This document shows positions 10,216 to 24,907 of a stretch of DNA of 33,127 nucleotides, in pieces (positions within the stretch are counted from its first letter, which is position 1; each line of letters begins with the position of its first letter). The stretch is from positions 1 to 33,127 of IMG/VR virus record IMGVR_UViG_2534682108_000003; one strand, given 5' to 3'. Made by a program: the position numbers and the translations under genes. The stretch is from a virus (lineage: Duplodnaviria > Heunggongvirae > Uroviricota > Caudoviricetes). The notes under the pieces were generated by a model. It was not told the origin of the DNA and did no database searches. It worked only from the letters and a program-made list of their open reading frames with translations.

Positions 10216-10510
10216 GCTCGTTTTCCTCGATGTAGTACAGCAAGTAACGGCTACCCAAGCCTTCCCATTGAGGGTCCGATTCCCCATCATTATCAATGAA
10301 AATAAGGTCTCCCTTAAATCCAAGGTAGGAGTATCTTACCATCTTATTCCCATACAGACATGGAACGCCCTGCATAATTGGGACTTCATTAACAGTTAAA
10401 TCCATGTACATAAAACTCTGTCGCTGAACAAGTTTTATATTACATTGCTGACCAGCCAGACTTACCGAAATGGACTGAGATTTGCTGGGAAGAACAGATA
10501 CTGTAATCAT
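10208..10510 (-). CDS. small phage tail protein (100 aa)
   Basis: ORF coupled to the flanking tail genes on the same strand. Confidence 0.4.
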   Translation of the reverse strand: MITVSVLPSKSQSISVSLAGQQCNIKLVQRQSFMYMDLTVNEVPIMQGVPCLYGNKMVRYSYLGFKGDLIFIDNDGESDPQWEGLGSRYLLYYIEENELV

Positions 10511-11322
10511 GTACTCGCCTTAACTATATTTTTTGCAATATCTGCCGCTTTTTTTGTTGCGCTGTTTGTAACTTCGAGTATTGGTTTGGACACTGTATCA
10601 AGAGCACTCTGAAATTCAGTCTTGATTGTACCGGAGATTTTTCCAGTGATTCCGCCAACAGATGACTTCAGTGATGACCATGATTTACTTAGCTCATCGA
10701 CAGTAGATTCCCTGGCTCCGCCATTGGTTATTTGTGGATCAACTCCTACATCTCCCTGTGACTTATTGTTATCCGTTGGCTTCTGTTCTGACTGAGATCC
10801 AGAGAGGATAACCTCCATTTGTTGAATGACCTCCTGAAAATCAAGATAAACCGTCAGAAGAGTCACCCCTTTTTGAGAGTTAACTTCGTAATAGTGGTCA
10901 ACAAGGTCGAAACTCTCCAGAGTTTCCTTTGGCGTTTCAATATCGTATGTTTTTGCAGAGGACAGCATCGTTTTGATTGTGTTCAGCGTGCTGTTCTGGC
11001 TTGTGAATGTTAGATCGAAAATATTCGGGATGTTGCCGGAAAAACCAGTAAGACCATTTACGATGATTGCGCACCTTACCCTGGCAGGTTCTTTAACTTT
11101 GTTGATGGACTGGTATTTCCCTTTCTCCACCGGAGCGTTTGTTATTTGCGCCCTTCCACTTGGCTGTACGGATGCCATACCACTGAACTCAAGAGCAACC
11201 TCGCCAGTTTCCCTGTCACGAATCACATACTGGGGATGCAGAACGCTGTCGATGATCGAAAGCGGAGAGCCACCACCGATAGCATTGAATATGTCTGCTG
11301 TGTTTAAATCGATTATGCCCAT
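10507..11322 (-). CDS. phage tail protein (271 aa; DNA-circulation/hub-proximal candidate)
   Basis: First ORF of the baseplate block, immediately downstream of an intrinsic terminator; function assigned by gene order only. Confidence 0.4.
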   Translation of the reverse strand: MGIIDLNTADIFNAIGGGSPLSIIDSVLHPQYVIRDRETGEVALEFSGMASVQPSGRAQITNAPVEKGKYQSINKVKEPARVRCAIIVNGLTGFSGNIPNIFDLTFTSQNSTLNTIKTMLSSAKTYDIETPKETLESFDLVDHYYEVNSQKGVTLLTVYLDFQEVIQQMEVILSGSQSEQKPTDNNKSQGDVGVDPQITNGGARESTVDELSKSWSSLKSSVGGITGKISGTIKTEFQSALDTVSKPILEVTNSATKKAADIAKNIVKAST

Positions 11323-11334
11323 CTACTCTCCATT

Positions 11335-11370
11335 AAACAAAAACCCAGCCGAAGCTGGGTTGGTTTTTAT
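11335..11370 (-). terminator. rho-independent terminator after the antirepressor operon
   Basis: GC hairpin CCCAGC-CGAA-GCTGGG (11344-11359); read on the minus strand it is followed by TTTTTGTTT; lies between the antirepressor stop (11383) and the next gene start (11322). Confidence 0.5.
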
Positions 11371-11382
11371 AAAAAGATTTAA

Positions 11383-12108
11383 TTAGGCTGCGGTAGAAAC
11401 ATTAACTAGATTTCTCAATACTTCAACTCCTTTTGAGTTGTAGCGGAATGCTTCCACCTGTTTGCTGGAATGCGCAGATTTATCCAGGAAGAACTTCCCG
11501 TACTGCTCAGTTTTGAGGTTGTTTGCGTTAGCAATGCGACCAATCTTGTTTGCCGTTACTCCAAGCTGCTCTGCAACCTCCCCTGCTGAGTAGTAATGCT
11601 CTTCTATTGCCGGAAGAGGTATTGCATTAAAACCAACGAGCGGGTTGATTATACTTGCTGCCGCTGTCTGCTTTGCCTCCGGCGCAAGATTTGGCATCAG
11701 ATCGAACAGATTGGTAACAGCTTCAACCGTCATTTTCAATGTTCGCGCTTGACGATACTCAACAAGTCCACTCGCTGATTTACCGCTTTTAATGTGCGCT
11801 TCCTGCATACTTTCAAGTTTGTCTACAAGTGTTCGGCGAACTGCTTTAGATTCGCGAGCAGCAACACGAAGCGCCTGCTTGATAGTCATGGAGATAACAT
11901 CAATGTCAGCCCCGTTTTTCCGACCTACACTTTTTGTGTAGGTCTCGCCTTCCAATTCATCCTCAATTTTCTCGATGAATTTGTTGTTACGTACTGATGG
12001 CTCTCCACATAACTTGCGAGCTTCATTAACCATCATCAGAAGACTTTGGCTGTCAATGGTTTTATCCGTGACAACGGATCCGATGTTTGCTACATTCTTA
12101 AAAGTCAT
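11383..12108 (-). CDS. phage antirepressor, KilAC-domain type
   Basis: ATG at 12108 with AAGGAA SD; about 241 aa; product family assigned from my recollection of KilA-C antirepressor sequences; the track ORF to 12192 overlaps the upstream gene and is probably over-extended. Confidence 0.5.
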   Translation of the reverse strand: MTFKNVANIGSVVTDKTIDSQSLLMMVNEARKLCGEPSVRNNKFIEKIEDELEGETYTKSVGRKNGADIDVISMTIKQALRVAARESKAVRRTLVDKLESMQEAHIKSGKSASGLVEYRQARTLKMTVEAVTNLFDLMPNLAPEAKQTAAASIINPLVGFNAIPLPAIEEHYYSAGEVAEQLGVTANKIGRIANANNLKTEQYGKFFLDKSAHSSKQVEAFRYNSKGVEVLRNLVNVSTAA

Positions 12109-12191
12109 TAGGCATTCCTTATGTGGTAGTAAGGGTGTGACATAGGCCGCCAGCAGCACACTGGCGGTTTTTTTCACCGCCAGATGCGTCA

Positions 12192-13106
12192 TTAATACAG
12201 ATGAACAGAAGGCGGCAATTCTTTATTCTTAAGCCTTATCCATGCGGAAAGATTCGTTGGTCCGTCTGGCTCATTAATATCAACATCTCGTGTGTGGTTT
12301 ATTAAAACGTCTCTCGCCATTCCGATAACATACGAGAATTCATGACCGTAGTCGTAGCATCTGCCGGAATAGTTCGATTGAATTTGTTTTAGCGCCGGAT
12401 ACAGTTCGCGGAATAATGCCTGTGAACGGTTGGCATAATCCCATAACCATACAAGGCTGTTTGCTTCTTTTGCAGAAAGCTCGTTGGTTTTCTTCTCTTG
12501 TTTGCCGATGAATTCACCTTCAAGTGGAACTCGAGCTGCAAGTGACAGTGCTTCGGTAAACTGCTCCTCACTGATTTCTTTGTACGAACATCCAAAATGG
12601 GATTTCAGTGACGACCACATGGTGATCATCGCCTTAGCCTGTTTTTCTTTTGGCAGAGACTGACCGCGACTCATGACGAGTTGTTTAATAGCTTCCTGCT
12701 GTTCAGTGGTGATTTTACCAGGCAACGCTTTTTTATCTTTCGGTGTATTTCCGTAAGACCCCGTTTTACGAATGGATGGCAAAACTTCAGCTGTTACCCA
12801 TTTGCGGAATTTGTGCGGGACTGAACCTTTATTGACGGCATCACGGCAGCGCAGAACCAATGTATACATACCTGATTCGCTCACAATGCTTAAATTCTGC
12901 TCACCACCAAGGGTGTAACTTAAAGTTACTCCCTTCTCATCGTCATCAAGTGCAGTAAGCGCCTTGCGTGAGTTAGTCAGGGTTAAAGCATCACAAACAT
13001 CTTTTGCTACAAACCACGGCTCACCGCACTTGTTGATGACGCGGATTTCACTGTCGCCGAATTTGAAGATGGTGAAATCGTTTTGTTCCTTTGCTATACT
13101 TTTCAT
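12192..13106 (-). CDS. phage antirepressor with Bro-N domain (Ant-like)
   Basis: 304-aa ORF; N-terminal Bro-N-like region ([30 protein letters not shown]); located directly downstream of an Arc-like gene, as ant is in P22 immI. Confidence 0.65.
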
Positions 13107-13177
13107 GTCAATATTTCCCGATCAGATTTGTTGATGTAGAAGCCTCGCCAGTTCCCGCTGTCGGGGCTTCGTTATTT

Positions 13178-13339
13178 TTAGAGAGCATTCCGCATTTTCT
13201 CCCGGTACTTCAACCACCAAGCAAGTCCCTGAACCAACACTGAGTTTTCTGACATCCCCTCTTCCTTAGCGATGCGTTTCACCTCCTCCTTAAAACGGTA
13301 CGGATACCGAAGAGTTGTCTTCACTTCATTCTTTTCCAT
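13178..13339 (-). CDS. arc: Arc-like ribbon-helix-helix repressor (53 aa), not in the ORF track
   Basis: Hand-translated: ATG at 13339 with AAGGAG SD 5 nt upstream, TAA at 13178-13180; MEKNEVKTTLRYPYRFKEEVKRIAKEEGMSENSVLVQGLAWWLKYREKMRNAL; pattern parallels P22 Arc as I recall it; divergent from the mnt-like gene. Confidence 0.5.
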   Translation of the reverse strand: MEKNEVKTTLRYPYRFKEEVKRIAKEEGMSENSVLVQGLAWWLKYREKMRNAL

Positions 13340-13441
13340 TGATTACTCCTTTTTACGTAATGGCATTATGCCTTGAAAGCAATATGCCATCATTGAATAT
13401 AAATAGCAATATGCCATCATTGTTTTTTTTGAGGTGATGTT
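13340..13441. promoter_or_regulatory. divergent promoter/operator region between arc-like and mnt-like genes
   Basis: Two 18-bp direct repeats AGCAATATGCCATCATTG (13378-13395 and 13405-13422) plus an inverted copy of the ATGCCAT core at 13360-13375 (AATGGCATTATGCC); flanked by divergent RHH repressor genes. Confidence 0.45.
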
Positions 13442-13762
13442 ATGGCTGAAAAGCAGGTTAAAGATTACGAAAAGTTTGTTGTGCGTTTCCCTGACGGGAT
13501 GAGGGACGCGATTGCGGAGAGAGCCAAACGAAACGGGCGCTCTATGAACTCAGAGATTGTGCAGATACTGGAAGATGCCTTGAATGCAGAAAATACTCTT
13601 GGGGAAATAGCAGACAAAATCAACAGCGTCTCGGTTCCGCTAAATGTTGATGCGCTAGTTCAACTTCAAGCCCAGGTTATCGCCATGCAAAAAGAAATAC
13701 AGGAAAAGTTCAGAGAGCAGAACGAAAAGTTGAGAGAACTACTAAACAAAAAACCCACCTGA
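13442..13762 (+). CDS. mnt: Mnt-like ribbon-helix-helix repressor
   Basis: 106-aa ORF with GAGGTGA SD; N-terminal RHH segment FVVRFPDGMRDAIAERAKRNGRSMNSEIVQILEDAL closely parallels the P22 Mnt N-terminus as I recall it; coiled-coil C-terminus. Confidence 0.65.
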   Translation: MAEKQVKDYEKFVVRFPDGMRDAIAERAKRNGRSMNSEIVQILEDALNAENTLGEIADKINSVSVPLNVDALVQLQAQVIAMQKEIQEKFREQNEKLRELLNKKPT

Positions 13763-13777
13763 CGGTGGGTTTCATAA

Positions 13778-14746
13778 TTAGATTTCTGGTTTCATTCTTC
13801 CGAAAACCTTTTCTATTCCTTTTTCGTATTCTTCTCTTGTCTCACTCATCGCTGCGACACCAAGAAGCTTACCGATATGCTGACGCAAAGCCTTGACACC
13901 AATTTCAGAAAGGAACAGATGCAACTTATCAGATTGTTTTCCGTTCTCGTCTCGGCTGGCTCGAATCTGTTCAAGTATTTTACCTTTACTCTTTGCTAGC
14001 GGGGTGTATATCTGCATGTTGGTTAGCTGCCCAAAACGAATAGGCCGTCCTTTCTCTGGCCTATTCAGTCCGTACAGTCGATACCACTCCTCGTATAGCT
14101 CATCTGGAAATTCCTTTTCATATTGACGAGCCTCTTCACGAACAAACGCTTTGAACTCGTCAATGACAGCCTGAACTTCTGGACGATAACCAGCAAGCGC
14201 ATACGCAACCCCCTTAATTCCCGCCTTAGCGGAGGCATTAATAAGTCTCTGTGCTGCGGCGGCTGCCTTTAACCGTGATTGTGGTAGATCGTCATTATCT
14301 TTGGCTTCTATTAGTGCCCTACCAATATCAACAATTGCTGTAATGTCATAACCTAACGCTTGATGAACGGTTTTAGACTTCGAAGTAAGTTGAAATTTAT
14401 AGGGATTTTCCATTTTTCGCTGCAATTCTAGATCTCGGTATTTGCTCATATACTGAGCGCCAAGCAGTTGATCTAAATCCCTGGCATGTTCACCAATCCC
14501 TAGCAACTGAGATAATCCAGTTTTCGTAACAACGACAGTTTTCGACTCGTCATCCAGTACATAACATTCAGCATCAATGCCAAAATCATCTAAAAAGTTA
14601 CCACGATGAGTTGCCCTGAGAATCTTACTTTTCCATCTTGCAGCAGCTGCTTTCTTTGCTATTTCAGAACGCTGCTCTTTAGTCAGCGATTTTGCGCGAG
14701 CGATCCCGCCCTTGGCTTTCCCTTCGCCACTTTTCTTTTCAGTCAT
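13778..14746 (-). CDS. P63C-like phage protein, putative DNA-binding (322 aa)
   Basis: ATG at 14746; N-terminal basic motif KGGIARAKSLTKEQRSEIAKKAAAARW, which I recall as common in P63C-type phage proteins; the track ORF extension to 14848 runs into the promoter and is rejected. Confidence 0.45.
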   Translation of the reverse strand: MTEKKSGEGKAKGGIARAKSLTKEQRSEIAKKAAAARWKSKILRATHRGNFLDDFGIDAECYVLDDESKTVVVTKTGLSQLLGIGEHARDLDQLLGAQYMSKYRDLELQRKMENPYKFQLTSKSKTVHQALGYDITAIVDIGRALIEAKDNDDLPQSRLKAAAAAQRLINASAKAGIKGVAYALAGYRPEVQAVIDEFKAFVREEARQYEKEFPDELYEEWYRLYGLNRPEKGRPIRFGQLTNMQIYTPLAKSKGKILEQIRASRDENGKQSDKLHLFLSEIGVKALRQHIGKLLGVAAMSETREEYEKGIEKVFGRMKPEI

Positions 14747-14955
14747 AATGCAAGCACCTTTGCTGTGATATATGCTTGCATTATATGCACTGTACCCACA
14801 TACAAGCAAGCATAAAACAAAAGAAAAATGCTTGCATTGCAACCGCACTACTCCAACTACACAGTATCATCTGGTATCCTGCGCAAAACTAACTGTTGCG
14901 TGCTTTTGCTTCAGTTAACGGATACAAACATAGGAAACGTTACAAGGGGAAAGCT
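14747..14955. promoter_or_regulatory. divergent intergenic region with repeated ATGCTTGCAT motif
   Basis: Direct copies ATGCTTGCAT at 14772-14781 and 14828-14837, inverted copy ATGCAAGCA at 14748-14756 and a related CAAGCAAGCAT at 14803-14813, between two divergently oriented genes. Confidence 0.4.
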
Positions 14956-15429
14956 GTGGAACAAGTGATTAAAGTTACAGCAATTGCCATTATCCTTCTC
15001 ACCATGTCACCCATTACAGCAACGGCAAAAAAAATTAATGTTTTGAATGGCTATCCACAGGAAGTAACGACCATTATTAATGACCCTAAAAATGAAGTGG
15101 TAATGATTAAGTCATTTAATGTCGATTCTTCCGGGTGTGACGTCAGGGAGCAAATGATGCTGATAGATAAAATCACAATGGACTCAGACGATAGATACCC
15201 AGAAAAAATGACATTCAGAGATATGCAAAACATGCGAATAAGCATGCCAACAAATTTTTCTTCTTTAGATAATGCCAGCAGATCATGGACTGATAGCATG
15301 TTCTCAGAAAACGAATGGGTAAATGTTCAATATTTACTTTGCGGCTCTGGAGGATTCCCACAAATGACTTCCATATCCAAGCATTCAAAGAGGTTCCCTA
15401 AAGTTGGTGTAACGATAGGTAGCAAGTAA
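14956..15429 (+). CDS. secreted/periplasmic hypothetical protein (moron)
   Basis: GTG at 14956 with AAGGGGA SD; N-terminal signal-peptide-like segment VTAIAIILLTMSPITATA followed by a hydrophilic domain with two Cys; plus strand, convergent with the tape-measure gene; the track TTG start at 14896 is doubtful. Confidence 0.4.
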   Translation: MEQVIKVTAIAIILLTMSPITATAKKINVLNGYPQEVTTIINDPKNEVVMIKSFNVDSSGCDVREQMMLIDKITMDSDDRYPEKMTFRDMQNMRISMPTNFSSLDNASRSWTDSMFSENEWVNVQYLLCGSGGFPQMTSISKHSKRFPKVGVTIGSK

Positions 15430-15431
15430 TA

Positions 15432-17249
15432 TTAAGGATTCACTCCACTAGAAAATGCCGCGTTTGTTGACACCCGGCTAACTTGCTGATTGACACTTCT
15501 GGTAAGAGCATCAACTGTTGTCGGGTTACTGTTAACAACAACCGTGCCAATAGTTGTACTGCTGCTACGACTGTTGTCAATTTTTGATGTTGTCTGGCTT
15601 GGTGTTGAAGCGATGCGTTGCTGCTGCTGATAGTAAGCCAGCGTCTCGTTTTCTTTTGCATTAAGAGCAGCGCGAATCTTTGGCACATATTCTCGCGTCT
15701 CTTTCGGTAAGGTGTTCCAGTATTTGGATGATGGTGAATCAAACCCGGTACTGGATATGTATTTTAACTTTTTGTCTACATTGCCCATCCCCCAGTTGTA
15801 AGCCATCAGCGCATGGTTAACATTGCCTTTGTAATGCTTTAGCAAATACTGCATGTACTTTGTGACTGCTGTGCGGGATTTTTCTTCATCAAGTCTCTCA
15901 TCAATTCCATCACCAACTTTCAGGCCTAACTCTCTAGCTGTATCAGGCATAAGCTGATAAGGTCCCGCAGCGCCTCTCGAACTGAAAAGATTTTTACCAC
16001 CACTCGATTCCACCTCACGAATGGCATCAAGAAGAGAATCCATGCTTACAGGCTTTACTCCGTCAGGGAGAGGGATATCTGGCTGAATGTTATTGCCATA
16101 AATCTCATCTCCCCTACGCCCAAAATCGGTGTCAAACCCCATGCTGCGCATGGTATCTCCAAGTTCACGCTTAGAGTAATCAAACGATCCTTTAGCTGCA
16201 CCCTCAATGTTTTCCCTGTCATTGTAGAGGTACAAACCATATGCTATTAACCCAGCCAACCATGGAGGAAGGGCACCGCCTGTAAGTTTGCTTCCTACAT
16301 ATGCTGCTGCCAATAGCTTCAGAGCCTCTTCCGCACCACCAACTGCCTTTGTGAATTGCTTCGTCATATTCCCGGCGTCATTGAAAAAGCCAATGATGTC
16401 GCCATGATGTTTCTCAATCCAGGAACCAAAAGCCTTCATCCCGTCAATAACGTCTGGAGCGAATGCCATGGCTAAATTTTGCTTTAATCGGGAAAACTCT
16501 GAATCAAGTTGCCCAAGAGTGGCAGCAACCTTCTCCTGCTCTTTTACCTGCTGTGCTGTAATACGGGATTTCTTTGTTTCTGAATCGACAAGCTGCTTAA
16601 GTTCCCCTGATTTTATTTTAGCGGCATCTGTCGGATCGAACCCTGCGGCAGCCATCACCTGCATCAGGTTTTCTTGAGAATGAGTCTTGCCATAGCGAGA
16701 AAACTCAGCAAGAGCCTTGTTTGGGTCGCCGAGCTTATTGATATCTAATCCGGTACGAGCGCCAAGAACCAGCAAATTTTGGGCAGCGCCAGTAAGCCCT
16801 CCCATAACAGTTGGATCGGCAATATTTGCCAAAGCCATTCTGGCATTCCCAGAAGATGAAATGAACGAGTCACCGTTAAGACCAGCCTGCCGAAATCCCC
16901 GCTGAACACCAAACATCTTATTAACATCAGAGCCGAAAAACTTGGCCTGTTGACTGGCTCTCACAATTTCGTTGGCAGTAGATGTAAAAAGTTGCTTGAT
17001 TCCATACAACCCGGCGCCGATTCCCAAAAATCCAGCGGCTGCTGTTGTTACGTTGCGGAAAGCTGAAACAGCGGTTTTACCGAACCTCTCCGTTTCCTGT
17101 CGCTGTTTTTCAAGTTCCTTTAGCCTTTCCTTCTCAGCCCTGGAAAGATCTTTGTTTAATTTACTAACTTCATCTTTTACTTTCCGTTTTCCATTCAGGA
17201 ATTCATCGGCCTTAATTGTGACCTTGTAGGCCAACTCATTGATAATCAT
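15432..17249 (-). CDS. tail tape measure protein with internal lytic transglycosylase (SLT) domain
   Basis: 605-aa ORF; coiled-coil N-terminus, Gly/Ala-rich central region, SLT-like motifs (ESSGGKNLFSSRGAAGPYQLMP...AYNWGMGN); follows the tail chaperone genes. Confidence 0.7.
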   Translation of the reverse strand: MIINELAYKVTIKADEFLNGKRKVKDEVSKLNKDLSRAEKERLKELEKQRQETERFGKTAVSAFRNVTTAAAGFLGIGAGLYGIKQLFTSTANEIVRASQQAKFFGSDVNKMFGVQRGFRQAGLNGDSFISSSGNARMALANIADPTVMGGLTGAAQNLLVLGARTGLDINKLGDPNKALAEFSRYGKTHSQENLMQVMAAAGFDPTDAAKIKSGELKQLVDSETKKSRITAQQVKEQEKVAATLGQLDSEFSRLKQNLAMAFAPDVIDGMKAFGSWIEKHHGDIIGFFNDAGNMTKQFTKAVGGAEEALKLLAAAYVGSKLTGGALPPWLAGLIAYGLYLYNDRENIEGAAKGSFDYSKRELGDTMRSMGFDTDFGRRGDEIYGNNIQPDIPLPDGVKPVSMDSLLDAIREVESSGGKNLFSSRGAAGPYQLMPDTARELGLKVGDGIDERLDEEKSRTAVTKYMQYLLKHYKGNVNHALMAYNWGMGNVDKKLKYISSTGFDSPSSKYWNTLPKETREYVPKIRAALNAKENETLAYYQQQQRIASTPSQTTSKIDNSRSSSTTIGTVVVNSNPTTVDALTRSVNQQVSRVSTNAAFSSGVNP

Positions 17250-24793: not shown

Positions 24794-24816
24794 AATAAAA
24801 AAGCCGCAGTAGCGGC
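24794..24816 (-). terminator. hairpin plus T-run inside the late gene cluster (candidate internal terminator)
   Basis: On the minus strand GCCGCTACTGCGGC is followed by TTTTTTATT; lies between the head morphogenesis and scaffold genes. Confidence 0.3.
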
Positions 24817-24907
24817 CATTATTTCCTCTTGGACATAGCTATTTTCAGTAGTGCAATCATTAAGCAACCAAAAATCAACACTAATCCCAGAGACCATAAA
24901 ACCTCAA

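Follow-up and report, generated by a model that had tools for sequence, protein, structure and literature searches.

This study concerns a block of roughly 4 kb (positions 11,335 to 15,429) in the IMG/VR virus record IMGVR_UViG_2534682108_000003 (Caudoviricetes), of which positions 1 to 33,127 were analysed; this whole stretch of 33,127 nucleotides is referred to below as the window. The window comprises most of a lambdoid prophage with all of its late genes on the minus strand, and the block lies among the tail genes, between the tape-measure gene and the first baseplate gene. The original prediction, made from the sequence alone, likened the block to immI, the second immunity region of phage P22, which controls synthesis of an antirepressor. 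Every gene it listed, together with a terminator, was found where it had been placed, with significant family matches, and two features were added: a sar-like RNA (13108-13174, plus strand) and a second terminator (13750-13773, minus strand). The features of the block and its flanking genes are given here in the late direction, followed by the late antiterminator of the prophage.

15432-17249, minus strand: tape-measure or lytic tail protein with an SLT domain, left flank of the block (PF01464, 1.6e-21; phrog_2013, 6e-189)
14956-15429, plus strand: secW, a moron gene encoding a 157-aa signal-peptide protein, its stop 2 nt from the convergent tape-measure stop
14745-14838: putative control region separating the divergent P63C and secW genes, in which TGCTTGCAT/ATGCAAGCA occurs four times
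13778-14746, minus strand: P63C-domain protein, same orientation as the late genes (PF10546, 7e-14, above the cut-off of 26.1; phrog_2384, 2e-104)
13750-13773, minus strand: intrinsic terminator after P63C, with a stem of 10 pairs and then a T-run; it overlaps the convergent mnt-like gene at its 3' end
13442-13762, plus strand: Mnt-like ribbon-helix-helix (RHH) repressor, 106 aa, against the late direction (PF03869, 1.6e-19)
13340-13441: predicted divergent promoter/operator region, 102 bp, with repeats and a near-palindrome
13178-13339, minus strand: Arc-like RHH repressor, 53 aa, first gene of the ant operon (phrog_582, 1.6e-10; Pfam Arc, 0.0038)
about 13108-13174, plus strand: predicted sar-like antisense RNA, with a promoter-like site at 13072-13100 (full-length match to Rfam RF00262)
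12192-13106, minus strand: antirepressor Ant, with an N-terminal Bro-N domain and a C-terminal P22AR_C domain (PF02498, 4.6e-20; P22AR_C, 5.8e-30; phrog_245, 1e-111)
11383-12108, minus strand: second antirepressor-family gene, 241 aa (phrog_1726, 'anti-repressor', 9e-99)
11342-11361, minus strand: intrinsic terminator, bidirectional, 20 nt upstream of the Dit-like start codon, ACCCAGCTTCGGCTGGGTTTTT
10507-11322, minus strand: Dit-like first baseplate gene, right flank of the block (phrog_1830, 5e-74; Pfam Dit_like, 1.4e-4, under the Pfam cut-off)
32122-32610, minus strand: Q-family late antiterminator (PF06530, 8.8e-25; in the closest relative its annotation reads 'antiterminator Q family protein')

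Several of these parts were aligned directly with their P22 counterparts. The last 111 residues of Ant (194-304) are ~90% identical to residues 190-300 of P22 Ant, as read off an alignment that as a whole shows 67% identity over 171 aa (E 1e-80); the N-terminal domain is of the Bro-N and not the P22 type. The terminator ACCCAGCTTCGGCTGGGTTTTT is an exact 22-nt match to the annotated ant terminator of P22, and also to vB_EcoP-611R6, a P22-like podovirus (Lederbergvirus). The Mnt-like protein shares 47% identity with P22 Mnt over the 43 aa of the RHH domain (E 2e-11), and its gene has the position and orientation of P22 mnt, divergent from the ant operon; no alignment to P22 Mnt was obtained for the C-terminal half of the protein. 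The Arc-like protein is equal in length to P22 Arc (53 aa) and aligns with it at 38% identity over 29 aa (BLASTP, E 3e-5).

The regulatory RNA of the P22 system also appears to be represented. In a relaxed local scan, Rfam model RF00262 was matched end to end at 13108-13174 (28.5 bits, E 0.0014), and the predicted RNA is complementary to the ribosome-binding region of ant, across the arc-ant junction. A promoter-like site with a TG-extended -10 element (13072-13100) precedes it and a GC-rich hairpin with a T-run lies at its end. Moreover, a GCTATACT..CATG motif near the ant start is common to P22 Psar, where it is the -10 motif, and to 20 distinct alleles from related loci, and the stem of the sar-like terminator carries compensatory changes at 6 of its 12 pairs (16 alleles including P22). 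Taken together, the Mnt, Arc and Ant alignments, the sar match with its Psar motif and covarying stem, the 22-nt terminator identity and the DNA identity to vB_EcoP-611R6 lead us to conclude from sequence that the block is homologous to P22 immI, not merely analogous, which bears out the proposal of an immI-type module.

The block appears to have more than one source. Among described phages, those nearest in the tail module are two myoviruses of the genus Gofduovirus, Edwardsiella phages GF-2 and Edno5. The 5' end of ant, arc and mnt are 75% identical in DNA to GF-2, and the 3' end of ant is 88-91% identical to P22 and vB_EcoP-611R6. Similarly, the segment 13748-14892, covering the P63C gene and the sequence upstream of it, shares 97.4% DNA identity with its counterpart in vB_EcoP-611R6, which sits in the ant-moron region between the DNA-transfer protein and tailspike genes. 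Because the 3' end of ant and P63C match the P22 lineage while the stretch from the 5' end of ant through arc and mnt matches GF-2, the block is, on sequence comparison, a mosaic of P22-lineage and GF-2-lineage pieces.

Between the divergent mnt-like and arc-like genes, the 102-bp region at 13340-13441 has the appearance of an operator cluster. It contains a perfect 18-nt direct repeat, AGCAATATGCCATCATTG, at 13378 and 13405 and a near-palindrome, ATGGCATTATGCC, at 13360-13372, both far from chance expectation; a GGCATAWTGC core is common to the two repeats and the near-palindrome, and is found again in the GF-2 region. Other alleles of the mnt-arc region have clear TTGACA-17-TAxxxT promoters directed toward arc and ant, with palindromes of their own. 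The assignment of individual operators to Mnt or Arc by comparing alleles was attempted and dropped, as all three sites carry the common core; the arc-proximal palindrome follows the Arc allele in two or three cases.

Downstream of ant, the second gene of the predicted tandem was assessed by family, fold and position. In the 83-nt spacer from the ant stop to its ATG there is a hairpin without a T-run, CTGGCGGTGAAAAAAACCGCCAG (12163-12185, minus strand). The protein belongs to a large unnamed family (1888 homologs); it begins with an alpha/beta domain, continues with long helices and ends in a MerR/Xis-like winged helix. Its predicted structure, a model of medium confidence (pLDDT 69.6), matched predicted viral antirepressor, KilAC and KilA proteins in Foldseek with E-values of 3e-8 to 1e-4 and low TM-scores of 0.2-0.36. 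Searches of NCBIfam, PADLOC and PDB sequences gave nothing useful, and Pfam gave a weak HTH_31 match and none to KilAC/ANT (PF03374) even at E<=10. By predicted fold and by position, we regard the product as an antirepressor-family protein and a putative antirepressor. The proposal of two antirepressors in tandem thus holds insofar as a second antirepressor-family gene follows ant; its designation as KilAC type found no Pfam match and can be entertained weakly, from the predicted fold.

Two accessory genes of the moron kind, P63C and a secreted-protein gene, complete the block as had been anticipated. The latter, secW, occupies the position held by sieA in P22; the equivalence is one of position only, with no similarity to P22 SieA detected by BLASTP. 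Pfam, NCBIfam, PADLOC and PDB sequence searches with SecW gave nothing useful. Its structure was predicted with confidence (pLDDT 85) as a generic OB-fold-like barrel, for which fold comparison gave no informative match. The four TGCTTGCAT/ATGCAAGCA copies at 14745-14838 are arranged as two inverted pairs, accompanied by a direct repeat, and by sequence look like operators for a regulator of the P63C and secW moron genes. A terminator-like hairpin with a T-run (15548-15576, plus strand), situated in the 3' end of the tape-measure coding sequence ~120 nt past the secW stop, may mark the end of the secW transcript.

We then compared the equivalent site in related phages. Loci with Dit-like relatives were collected from viral and genome collections (98 loci, plus two Escherichia coli relatives and the window), and the distance from the tape-measure stop to the Dit start could be measured in 93. 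This slot ranges from -4 bp to 4950 bp. The two genes overlap or abut (-4 to +2 bp) in 13 of the 93 loci, those of more remote relatives, Arsenophonus prophages among them. Slots of 25-300 bp occur in about two dozen loci, mostly with one 70-aa membrane open reading frame (ORF); ~17 have slots of 0.5-1.3 kb, usually with one signal-peptide ORF on the opposite strand; the remainder have slots of 1.6-5 kb. An antirepressor-family gene is present in ~38 of the 93 and an RHH gene in 36, mostly in the same order.

The order that recurs in the long slots is a secreted protein (against the late direction), optional cargo, an Mnt-like protein or a helix-turn-helix (HTH) plus S24 repressor of LexA/CI type (also against the late direction), then an Arc-like protein and Ant in the late direction. 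Ant is often followed by a second gene from domain-shuffled antirepressor families (phrog_1726 in 15 loci, an ORF6N protein in ~5), sometimes with a 73-aa ORF after it. The first slot position is occupied by at least six unrelated families of secreted proteins, and identical or near-identical cassette alleles recur in several loci. Because tape-measure and Dit genes abut in distant relatives, the sequence comparison supports the view that the block is an insertion, as first proposed, into a cargo hotspot of the late operon. What marks it as a moron is that it is present in some syntenic relatives and absent in others, that a terminator stands at its right edge, and that it has putative promoters.

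The slot has other states too. At an E. coli A41 locus (L002, 3874-8771), and likewise at L012, L013, L053 and L086, an HTH plus peptidase S24 repressor replaces the Mnt-like gene, and some of these S24-type alleles add a pair of genes with a Panacea (SocA) domain; these sister alleles suggest that control of the antirepressor at this site can respond to SOS and that toxin-antitoxin genes can be carried here as cargo. Slots of 285-295 bp (L026-L043 and similar) encode a 67-76-aa predicted membrane protein in the late direction, together with a terminator, and may represent the simplest moron state of the site.

The prophage that carries the block has a late order of Q, two tRNAs, holin/endolysin/Rz, Rha, terminase, head genes, sheath, tube, tape measure, the block, the Dit-like gene, and baseplate and fibre genes. 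The Dit-like protein is 66% identical to its homolog gp24 of GF-2. The closest complete relative is an E. coli KCJ3K291 prophage, 97.3% identical across the block, whose lambdoid genome is complete and includes int, xis, N, a CI-like S24 repressor, cro, cII, nin genes and Q. Few E. coli strains have the tail module, which occurs in 21 of 5426 complete genomes. The integrase of the window adjoins a tRNA-Arg; the relevant genes are tRNA-Arg(CCT) at 3424-3498 (plus strand) and the integrase at 3624-4817, and a second integrase-like ORF lies at 2060-2926. The closest relative is integrated between dacD and torS, and the window prophage at a different site. The two tRNAs between Q and the holin gene are tRNA-Thr(TGT) and tRNA-Asn(GTT) (31875-32030, minus strand). 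The Rha-domain gene (29548-30315, minus strand), between the lysis genes and terminase in the same place as rha in P22, is a further antirepressor-family gene within the late operon.

How late transcription would pass the block bears on whether the tail genes are expressed together. In nearly all non-empty slots, whatever their cargo and even where the slot is 71-300 bp long, the Dit start is preceded at 12-20 nt by a GC-rich hairpin with a T-run, which is absent where the tape-measure and Dit genes abut; its stem differs by compensatory changes between lineages. The second terminator of the block (13750-13773) ranked top in a 20-kb terminator scan, and a promoter scan of the late strand upstream of 11322 found no promoter-like site. 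In GF-2, a viable, plaque-forming myovirus, genes for Mnt-like, Arc-like and Ant proteins in the corresponding orientations lie between the lytic tail protein and the Dit homolog, with the same pre-Dit terminator. Edno5, a close relative of GF-2, produces complete myovirions and shows spontaneous induction, and an ImmI region comprising Ant, Mnt and Arc has been reported for it (PMC6372524). Since Q is present in the window, the pre-Dit terminator is conserved, no promoter-like site was detected on the late strand before 11322 and the GF-2 layout is the same, the most likely reading by analogy with P22 is that the terminators stop transcripts from cassette promoters and are read through by Q-modified polymerase. 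The tail operon is probably not broken by the block. Another strong intrinsic terminator (24802-24817, minus strand; GGCCGCTACTGCGGCT and TTTTTATT) lies elsewhere inside the late operon, in a 134-bp gap between a head-morphogenesis gene and a DUF2213 gene; its presence again indicates that late transcription has to withstand terminators.

The explanation that we consider probable is that the block is a P22-type 'ant moron', an immI cassette with accessory genes, residing in a late-operon hotspot of a Q-dependent, GF-2-related myovirus prophage, with its terminators bypassed by Q. Sequence comparison showed that the parts are homologous, that the insertion is polymorphic and that the terminator and the sar-like element are conserved, and Q is encoded in the window; the regulatory steps, the target of Ant and the read-through we infer by analogy, as follows. 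In a lysogen, the Mnt-like repressor, expressed from the strand opposite to the late genes, would bind the repeated operators and silence the ant promoter. Once active, this promoter would yield a transcript encoding the Arc-like protein, Ant and the second antirepressor-family protein, with Arc providing rapid negative feedback and the sar-like antisense RNA, transcribed from within the start of ant, blocking ant translation; the transcript would end at the P22-type terminator at 11342-11361, immediately ahead of the baseplate genes. The target of Ant would be the CI-type repressor of the prophage, which it would bind and inactivate; it might act likewise on repressors of co-resident phages, which is plausible by analogy with P22 Ant. 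During lytic growth, Q-modified polymerase from the late promoter would pass the cassette terminators into the baseplate and fibre genes, so that the terminator at 11342-11361 would insulate the tail genes from cassette promoters and the operon would not be functionally split.

Several observations weigh against this explanation. The prophage repressor lies outside the window, and Q read-through is taken from lambdoid biology for a prophage known here from its sequence. The sar match (28.5 bits) falls under the gathering score of 43, and Rfam at the gathering threshold returned tRNAs only. Support for the Arc-like assignment is moderate, its Pfam Arc score being 17.5 bits against a cut-off of 20.4. 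The candidate operators are unrelated in sequence to those of P22, and a sigma-70 scan of 13340-13441 gave no consensus ant or mnt promoter in the window allele. Lastly, in the P22-like E. coli phage Kapi1, mnt is not detectably expressed in lysogens (PMC12922286), and the rules of P22 are therefore not automatically transferable.

A different interpretation of the terminators is that the block functionally splits the tail operon, leaving the baseplate and fibre genes with a promoter of their own or the prophage tail-defective. The two strong late-strand terminators within the block (11342-11361 and 13750-13773) and the two genes that run against the late direction are what one would expect in that case. 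The original prediction offered only these outcomes and omitted Q read-through; it is on this point that we depart from it, because Q is present, no promoter was detected upstream of 11322 and GF-2 is viable. In addition, the layout of a terminator before Dit is kept across the family, an identical stem-loop precedes the tailspike gene of P22, and the downstream tail ORFs are all intact. We consider a split operon improbable.

It could also be argued that the cassette is an inactive remnant, passively carried at a site that tolerates cargo, whose intact genes no longer regulate lysogeny. Some P22-like ant morons contain degraded ant genes (PMC2629481), Kapi1 again provides a precedent with its lack of detectable mnt expression (PMC12922286), and the promoters of the window allele are weak by consensus. 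Decay of this kind is at odds with six full-length ORFs, with predicted operators, sar promoter and terminators that are all intact, with the recurrence of identical or near-identical alleles in several loci, and with the compensatory changes in the sar terminator, which imply selection; we judge it unlikely. Finally, a defence or exclusion module (toxin-antitoxin-like or abortive infection) built from the RHH pair and the Bro-N, P63C and phrog_1726 proteins is very improbable: RHH proteins are common as antitoxins, sister slot alleles carry a Panacea (SocA) pair, Bro-N/KilA-type proteins can inhibit growth (PMC5944126), and some PHROG names for the RHH proteins read 'partition protein', but PADLOC gave no match of note, the C-terminal domain of Ant is ~90% identical to that of an experimentally defined antirepressor, and this reading of the RHH pair was rejected because the predicted sar RNA, the ant terminator and the P22AR_C domain are all hallmarks of an ant circuit.

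In summary, the ant moron is an element of a known kind, an ImmI region having already been noted in the sister phage Edno5 (PMC6372524), and current understanding is not overturned. Its main interest lies in portability across morphotypes and in a well-populated series of slot states. The second-immunity cassette of P22 is not tied to P22-like podoviruses; it appears as a portable unit with a predicted antisense RNA and its own terminator, docked at the equivalent late-operon position of a contractile-tailed lambdoid lineage. The slot series runs from empty, through a terminator with a small ORF and a single secreted protein, to a full immI under Mnt-type or LexA-type control, and so offers a clean natural data set on two questions: how an essential operon can take up a moron and still work, and how regulators are swapped in antirepressor circuits. 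For annotation, we would caution that internal terminators are no ground for calling such prophages tail-defective. More speculatively, and although it is less likely than not, the junction that follows the ejection or wall-penetrating protein gene (tape measure in this prophage, gene 16 in P22) may serve phages of unrelated virion architecture as an equivalent docking site. Whole ant-moron cassettes, with the ant terminator as their right edge, would then pass between the late operons of podoviruses and myoviruses, and the diverse secreted proteins that always occupy the first position, on the opposite strand, would be periplasmic superinfection-exclusion factors acting against incoming tape-measure or ejection proteins, as functional analogues of SieA.

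Compared with known systems, the block is closest to the ant moron of P22-like phages, which occurs as ten types in sixteen genomes and is absent in some (Villafane, Casjens et al. 2008, PMC2629481). It matches the P22 arrangement (16 / sieA<, orf59a<, mnt< / arc>, sar<, ant>, terminator / 9) in order and orientations, with the predicted sar-like RNA at the place of sar, and it likewise sits in a late operon dependent on Q (gp23 in P22), directly downstream of the ejection or wall-penetrating protein gene and ahead of the genes for the distal adsorption apparatus. As in P22-like phages, it is hypervariable among close relatives, some of which have empty sites, and direct sequence identity links the terminator, the C-terminal domain of Ant and the P63C segment (for the last, with vB_EcoP-611R6) to the P22 lineage. 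Unlike P22, the window phage has a GF-2-type contractile tail and not a podovirus tail, and the block is flanked by tape-measure and Dit-like genes instead of gene 16 and the tailspike gene; it also differs in its operator sequences, in the Bro-N N-terminus of Ant and in the second antirepressor-family gene downstream of ant. The P63C gene between the exclusion-position gene and mnt is a further departure from P22 that is shared with vB_EcoP-611R6. With GF-2 and Edno5 the window phage shares its tail module, and in GF-2 an Mnt-like/Arc-like/Ant cassette stands at the same junction; GF-2 has no P63C gene, no member of the secW family and no second antirepressor-family gene, and the C-terminal part of its Ant differs.

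Two other kinds of system offer parallels. A superinfection exclusion protein of HK97, gp15, is said to be encoded by a moron adjoining the tape-measure gene (reportedly Cumby et al. 2012), and secW resembles such morons as a small envelope-targeted accessory gene beside the tape-measure gene; no similarity between SecW and HK97 gp15 was detectable. Antirepressors under the control of LexA or CI-type repressors are the second kind: those of the Gifsy phages were reportedly described by Lemire et al. in 2011, and Tum of coliphage 186 is another. Unlike these, the window allele encodes an RHH repressor of Mnt type without an S24 domain, and direct SOS input is not evident. The likeness lies in the sister alleles of the slot, which carry an HTH plus S24 repressor, and in the role of the antirepressor as a trans-acting inducer.

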